In this document: piece after piece, positions 39,975-40,240 of the stretch
Layout of the letters: the number at the start of each line of letters is the position of its first letter
How positions within the stretch are numbered: the stretch's first letter is position 1
Assembly: GCA_951406725.2 (NCBI GenBank)
Contig: OX597833.1
Coordinates: 64,170,001-64,234,000, forward strand
Direction of reading: 5' to 3'
Source of the DNA: Octopus vulgaris
Taxonomy: Eukaryota
DNA: 64,000 nucleotides
The notes under the pieces: model-generated
The model's database searches: none
Told to the model about the DNA's origin: nothing
The model's input: the letters and a program-made list of their open reading frames with translations, nothing else
Made by a program: the position numbers and the translations under genes

Positions 39975-40240
39975 CCTTATGTTTACAACGGGGAAACAAC
40001 CACCCCCGTCCAGCTAAGCCTGCAACCAGAGACTAGTTTCTGACTCTTACTCGTCATCAGTCTGGAGTAGCATGGCATGCTAGCTGACTGCAGATGCTTG
40101 CCGACAGGAAGCATTGATGCTTCCTAGGGTTAAATAGCGGTGAGGTGATTCCCTTCATGGGACTTTCACATTAAATGGACAGTATACAACTACTCTATCG
40201 TACCACCACTGTTTATATCTCTCTGAGATATTTAGAATCT
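39975..40240. mobile_element. Head-to-head composite of two HHR-family segments next to (CA)n(TA)n
   Basis: 39975-40088 (minus) is homologous in layout to 56385-56500. 40089-40240 (plus) starts TGCAGATGCTTG like 56455 and matches 19894-20030. Confidence 0.7.
40026..40065 (-). ncRNA. Minimal type-I hammerhead ribozyme motif
   Basis: Minus strand reads CCAGA-CUGAUGA-CGAGUAAGAGUCA-GAAA-CUAG-UC-UCUGG. It has a perfect 5-bp stem I, exact core, palindromic ACUAGU stem III and a GUC site. Stem II (UGAC/GUCA) overlaps the core, suggesting a 3-nt loss. Confidence 0.75.

Follow-up and report, generated by a model that had tools for sequence, protein, structure and literature searches.

The locus at 39972 to 40237 of the window, the whole 64,000-nt stretch of Octopus vulgaris DNA that was analyzed, is best explained as two 5'-truncated pieces of a single non-coding hammerhead repeat (here called family A), joined head-to-head at 40100 by one insertion of the Penelope type. 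We put the probability of this reading at roughly 85%. The features on which the analysis draws are as follows.

39915..39971: (CA)n/(TA)n microsatellite forming the left flank (sequence)
39972..40100, minus strand: arm 1, a 5'-truncated family-A unit from about -70 to +57, with hammerhead (L052 alignment, L091 mapping)
40021..40072, minus strand: type I hammerhead with extended helix I and palindromic two-pair helix III (descriptor, covariation, fold)
40089..40100, minus strand: 12-mer belonging to the family A upstream arm (L052 alignment, fold, context in other loci)
40100: head-to-head junction with a 1-nt overlap, unique in the genome
40100..40237, plus strand: arm 2, a 5'-truncated family-A unit from +75 to +212, ending near the distal 3' site (L091 mapping)
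40230..40350, minus strand: older sister-subfamily copy, ~72% identical, tail-to-tail with arm 2 (8-nt overlap)
19862..20094, plus strand: another 5'-truncated family-A copy, without hammerhead (window scan, unit mapping)
31510..31697: compact head-to-head insertion of family B in (TA)n, its two arms ending at different 3' end sites
56197..56598, plus strand: partial tandem of sister family B, period 350 (descriptor, copy comparison)
56418-56460, plus strand: family-B hammerhead with a U3-A8 core pair (descriptor)

The window locus and its junction

Unit coordinates are counted from the predicted cut (0), with the natural tandem L091 (period 350) as the ruler. Arm 1 aligns to another natural copy, L052, over 129 nt without a gap, from 40100 to 39972. 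A preliminary description had placed the junction at 40088/40089, where a plus-strand segment was thought to start at the predicted cleavage site, possibly joined to an inverted piece of a sister subfamily, since the 12-mer at 40089-40100 recurs at 56455-56466. The identity of the two 12-mers is confirmed by the sequence, but there is no junction at 40088/40089: the L052 alignment is continuous there and the join lies at 40100, both arms are family A, and the plus arm starts at unit +75 rather than at the cleavage site. Because the minus-arm alignment is gapless from 40100 to 39972, the 12-mer is the reverse complement of the family A upstream arm. It pairs with unit +24..+35 in the long rod of the predicted L052 fold and lies within unbroken family-A context at 7 other loci; as a mark of a sister-family piece it was rejected on the alignment and on this context. 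Of 30 family-B copies, only 2 have the exact 12-mer directly after the cut. Unit positions -70..-59 of family A are the exact reverse complement of family B +0..+11 in common variants of both, and this 12-13-nt match possibly reflects shared ancestry of paired arms, or chance.

The two arms are each 88% identical to the reference unit. The 24-mer spanning the junction has a single match in the 2.8-Gb genome at up to 2 mismatches; L008 joins at similar coordinates with a different sequence. None of the contigs listed from four runs spans 40100, which carries no weight either way. The older minus-strand copy at 40230-40350 overlaps the younger arm 2 at a self-complementary 8-mer. This older copy is the likely insertion target, and family A may target its own tail. 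The locus is atypical in two respects: arm 1 ends at neither of the 3' sites described below, and no target duplication is visible.

The hammerhead of the window copy

In a descriptor scan of the window, the minus strand at 40060-40031 matched the type I hammerhead core exactly, the sole exact-core match within the 64 kb; 56424-56454 was scored by the same descriptor with two core changes. The helix I arms, at 40065-40061 and 40030-40026, form five pairs, helix III has two pairs with a palindrome cap, and cleavage is predicted between 40031 and 40030. The exact core and the helix I arms thus bear out the hammerhead first described on the minus strand at 40065-40026. This copy is damaged, with two broken pairs, one in helix II and one at the distal end of helix I. 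The helix II break is a G.G mismatch inside the family stem GAG/CUC, which is unbroken in 81 of 99 matches; the C.A mismatch closing helix II is a family-wide trait (56/99 matches). In the predicted fold, core nucleotides are mispaired instead of helix II being formed, and the fold has decayed (z -1.3, versus z -8.2 for L052, whose 150-nt fold has -76.9 kcal/mol). The window hammerhead is real and a member of its family, with cleavage predicted from the fold to be impaired. Among the 150 of 289 Rfam matches listed for the whole window there is no hammerhead, nearly all of them being miRNA models driven by microsatellites. Narrow Rfam scans of the window locus and of the intact dimer L091 likewise returned no hammerhead family at E<=10.

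Covariation was assessed in 16 hand-picked copies across subfamilies. In this set 91% of cells pair, compared with 24-47% in slid controls, and 8 of the 16 pairs have changes at both positions, although the copies are related and few events are therefore counted repeatedly. The covarying pairs include three in helix I, three in helix II and core pair 3-8, which is C3-G8 in family A versus U3-A8 in 27 of 30 family-B copies. A hand count over the 100 of 643 matches listed gave 80 C-G, 19 U-A, 1 C.A and 0 U.G for this pair; the U3-A8 variant has already been described (PMC4209133). Compensatory pairs across two families thus uphold the earlier proposal of a real RNA fold and, as far as sequence comparison goes, support selection on the hammerhead fold. 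The earlier proposal of compensatory stems holds for helix I, which covaries across families, and fails for helix II of the window copy, which carries the G.G mismatch: a compensatory variant is ruled out there, the family stem being kept in 81/99 matches and one pair being broken in this copy.

The U3-A8 core swap is common to sister families B (L163-L192) and C (L243-L257), and family C has a canonical four-pair helix II closed by G-C. No natural family-B dimer was found by pattern, and end pairing in family B is known from read examples.

Abundance and structure of family A

Family A is a non-coding tandem-unit repeat of 350 nt and is abundant in the genome, which is microsatellite-rich. 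An exact hammerhead pattern has 349 matches genome-wide and an exact anchor pattern for the 3' part has 232, while the reversed controls of both have 0; a looser hammerhead pattern has 643 matches. DNA similarity search of the genome gave 93 matches among 40 scored of 3494 candidates, and repeat search of the window was dominated by microsatellites. The head-to-tail period of 350 also occurs at 56197/56547, in family B. Of 142 pieces, 23 are longer than one unit. Inspection of the open reading frames listed for the family unit revealed none belonging to the unit, and no ORF of a Penelope-like element (PLE) is joined to it in 212 hammerhead loci, bar one separate fragment. An intact copy is predicted to fold as a long rod whose tip carries the ribozyme.

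Contigs from four presumed-RNA runs cover relatives of the unit; they carry no strand, ends or circle. Related subfamilies have high summed depth over L091 unit +80..+175 in the contigs of presumed-RNA runs, again with strand not given. A different abundant repeat, at 39500-39890 and 56640-56980, flanks both hammerhead loci beyond the microsatellites.

Junctions and 5' ends across loci

The first 100 listed of the 232 matches to the 3' anchor represent 90 distinct loci. A wider set holds 150 of 162 fetched loci, 12 having been left out as duplicates; one of these, L026 (the window's copy at 19.9 kb), is actually distinct. Head-to-head joins are found in 43 of the 90 loci, and tail-to-tail joins within family A in none (0/90). 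The junction coordinates are scattered. The 82 junctions in the wider set give 3321 pairwise comparisons, of which 8 match to within 2 nt; all 8 come from one hotspot at unit -48/+70 (5/82 junctions: L003, L006, L029, L078 and L082), where sequences and outer ends differ. The hotspot sites -48 and +70 hold an identical short palindrome.

It had been suggested that copying of a self-cleaved RNA ran precisely to its 5' end, so that the cut would set the 5' ends of copies. Five of 142 pieces do start within 3 nt of the cut (four at +1), against 2.8 expected if starts were uniform. None begins at base 0, however; one of the five is a misalignment, one a local duplication and one lies at -3, leaving two that could have started at 0/+1. 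Among the 73 arms extending to +10, 65 continue beyond -10 and hence through the cut, and the plus arm of the window locus begins at +75. The 5' ends are therefore not concentrated at the GUC, and ends defined by cleavage are refuted as a rule; that the cut set the ends is very improbable. Since 65/73 arms run through the cut, we infer that the insertion template was uncut, either tandem or circular. The stopping rate is highest at -59 to -40, upstream of helix I, a peak partly affected by a mismatch in the ruler.

3' end sites and the pairing of arms

Nearly all pieces (128/142) end at one of two sites, site A at ~+170 (69 pieces) or site B at ~+227 (59 pieces). Both ends could be classed in 32 of the 43 head-to-head joins, and 29 of these 32 have one A end and one B end, compared with 16 expected (p=1.2e-6); in the wider set the figure is 47/50. 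The tail of ~55 nt is present on one end only. Judged by eye, 9 of the 29 A+B loci have a direct 9-14-nt word next to each outer end and a further 8 are set in (TA)n; 20 of the 29 have no clear non-repeat duplication. Microsatellites adjoin 61 of 128 ends. The 43/90 head-to-head joins, the two end sites, the A+B pairing and the target duplications together support the Penelope-style 5' inversion that was one of the two origins first considered.

The nesting of the arms bears on the best surviving alternative, fold-back or self-priming, in which one cDNA turned and copied itself or an antisense template primed itself, as proposed in PMC3846280. Such a process is compatible with the 12 of 29 A+B loci in which the A arm is nested within the B arm, and with the few junctions at which both 5' ends lie at nearly equal coordinates. 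In the other 17, neither arm is nested: the A arm extends beyond the B arm on the 5' side yet lacks the tail. Neither arm can therefore be a copy of the other in these loci, and the non-nesting points to two separate primings. The arms of the window locus, moreover, cover non-overlapping stretches of the unit. Also in favour of fold-back, arms of the same locus resemble each other more than the mean across other loci in all 37 tested; they are each other's top match in only 4. Same-locus arms share a subfamily, and perhaps a template molecule. We regard fold-back as unlikely.

A little less likely still are two independent insertions brought side by side by later rearrangement or assembly error. 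The window locus has no target duplication and an unusual arm 1 end, and the adjoining older copy shows that insertions do stack. Against this, head-to-head joining is a rule of the family (43/90), many loci have duplications around the whole structure, and the two arms at the window locus share 1 nt and each match the reference unit at 88% identity.

The unusual end of arm 1, at +57, lies ~17 nt from the start of arm 2. Near-abutment within 30 nt of this kind characterizes 5 of the 10 3'-anchored loci with odd ends (p=0.019) and 12 of 28 in the wider, partly biased set. In L1 twin priming, the second priming is internal. By analogy, near-abutment suggests an internal second priming in family A, with later deletion as the other possibility.

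Ribozyme polarity

Avsunviroidae and certain other viroid-like RNAs carry ribozymes in both polarities, and family A resembles them in its length of ~350 nt, its rod-like predicted fold and its hammerhead; it differs in having one ribozyme polarity only and in its retroposed genomic copies. The other origin first considered, an ambisense element whose members have hammerheads in both polarities by design, is refuted and retains hardly any probability: whole hammerheads on both strands occur in 2 of 90 3'-anchored loci and there come from long inverted arms, the plus arm at the window locus has no ribozyme, the 40100 junction is found at one locus only in 2.8 Gb, and relaxed type I and type III hammerhead searches found no hammerhead or core-like heptamer in the antisense of the family-A monomer and no hammerhead in that of family B. 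Non-hammerhead or split-core antisense ribozymes were screened through Rfam only. Hammerhead pairs 100-700 bp apart on opposite strands have been described in Schistosoma PLE remnants (PMC4209133).

Proposed mechanism of insertion

The Penelope-type reading can be spelled out as follows. The unit RNA, as an uncut tandem transcript or a circle, would be bound by a Penelope reverse transcriptase-endonuclease, which would nick both strands of AT-rich target DNA. Each nicked strand would then prime its own cDNA, normally one at +170 and the other at ~+227; both cDNAs would stop early, their 5'-truncated ends would be linked, often via short overlaps, and the staggered nicks would give rise to the target duplication. 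At the window locus, arm 2 may have been primed near the distal site by an 8-nt match to the older antisense copy, and arm 1 internally at +57 in the manner of twin priming, unless it was trimmed later. Tandem transcripts are likely cleaved into monomers by the hammerhead, which would probably act as a dimer and does not set insertion ends; PMC7229834 and PMC4209133 are the basis for expecting dimeric action on tandem RNA.

Three features speak for double priming rather than self-priming: end sites are strictly paired, target duplications enclose whole inverted structures, and arms occur that are not nested. We propose, at about even odds, the more general scheme that Penelope head-to-head insertions arise from two separate reverse transcriptions, one per nicked strand, with an obligatory +170/~+227 split, possibly made by a protein dimer that holds two RNA units through the palindromic helix III.

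Penelope-like elements in the genome

The genome contains a young autonomous PLE (L223-L232, L241, L242) with an intact 781-aa reverse transcriptase frame that has a C-terminal GIY-YIG domain, in copies up to 99% identical. Its 3' ends lie at two sites separated by 30 nt, and in one inverted copy each of the two is used once. An overlapping upstream frame of 479 aa is seen in three loci, and the long 3' region has tandem repeats, with a U3-A8 hammerhead-like motif near its end. As a partner of family A this element was rejected: its hammerhead is its own and unrelated, and its ends and sequence are dissimilar to the units.

Blastn comparison of 50 GIY-YIG loci (drawn from 150 scored of 6136 candidates) with the units of families A and B found no homology to a pLTR, apart from one neighbouring family-B copy. 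By tblastn of the PLE protein against the 212 hammerhead loci and the window, there was 1 match, separated from the unit by (TA)n. In this locus, L110 (386-712), a family-A unit ends in (TA)n and is directly followed, in the same orientation, by a 5'-truncated GIY-YIG fragment from a different PLE; being a single, ambiguous neighbour, the fragment was not accepted as evidence of a partner. Among the GIY-YIG loci compared, no autonomous partner of family A was found.

Comparison with known elements

Family A closely resembles the metazoan non-LTR retrozymes (Cervera and de la Pena 2020, PMC7229834; Li et al. 2026, preprint 10.64898/2026.07.22.740005). Shared traits are a non-coding tandem unit of 170-400 nt with one type I hammerhead each, a short helix III with a palindromic loop, strongly self-paired RNA, dispersed monomers and dimers, and PLEs in the same genome; the helix II base mismatch is also described for axolotl HHR_Amex2. 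There are differences as well. [quoted passage not shown] Inverted arms and end sites, both analyzed here, receive no analysis in the retrozyme passages of these papers. Literature searches found no report of family A, of retrozymes in this animal group or of a count of A+B pairing, although supplements may contain them.

The ends of family A copies resemble insertions of endonuclease-bearing PLEs (Craig et al. 2021, PMC8557442; Arkhipova et al. 2013, PMC3846280; Frangieh et al. 2024, PMC11167929). Both show 5' truncation, partial tandems, head-to-head inverted copies, a tail on one end, two priming sites, AT-rich or (TA)n targets, target duplications of ~10 bp, and ends that are not at the hammerhead cut. 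Family A differs in having no ORF and a tail of ~55 nt instead of 30-40. According to PMC3846280, one of the inverted pLTRs optionally carries the tail. Both-strand nicking with extension, two initiation sites and a predicted dimer are described in PMC11167929, where hammerhead cleavage is dispensable in vitro; the start site there is equal between strands, with which our pairing rule must be squared. The one-A-one-B rule and the non-nesting are counted here for family A, while the passages on PLEs are qualitative or silent on these points. Schistosoma PLE hammerheads (Cervera and de la Pena 2014, PMC4209133) are alike in their opposite-strand pairs and U3-A8 variant, and differ in being minimal motifs with a long helix II, where family A has canonical helix sizes.

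The window locus itself is an ordinary product of a known process, a damaged hammerhead in a Penelope-type inverted retrozyme insertion. The part worth following is the end-pairing data at the level of the family. PMC8557442 describes the origin of inverted repeats and one-sided tails in Penelope elements as an open question. The end structure of family A is evidence that animal retrozymes use Penelope enzymes and, if double priming is true, the family would provide hundreds of natural products of the reaction together with a 350-nt substrate.
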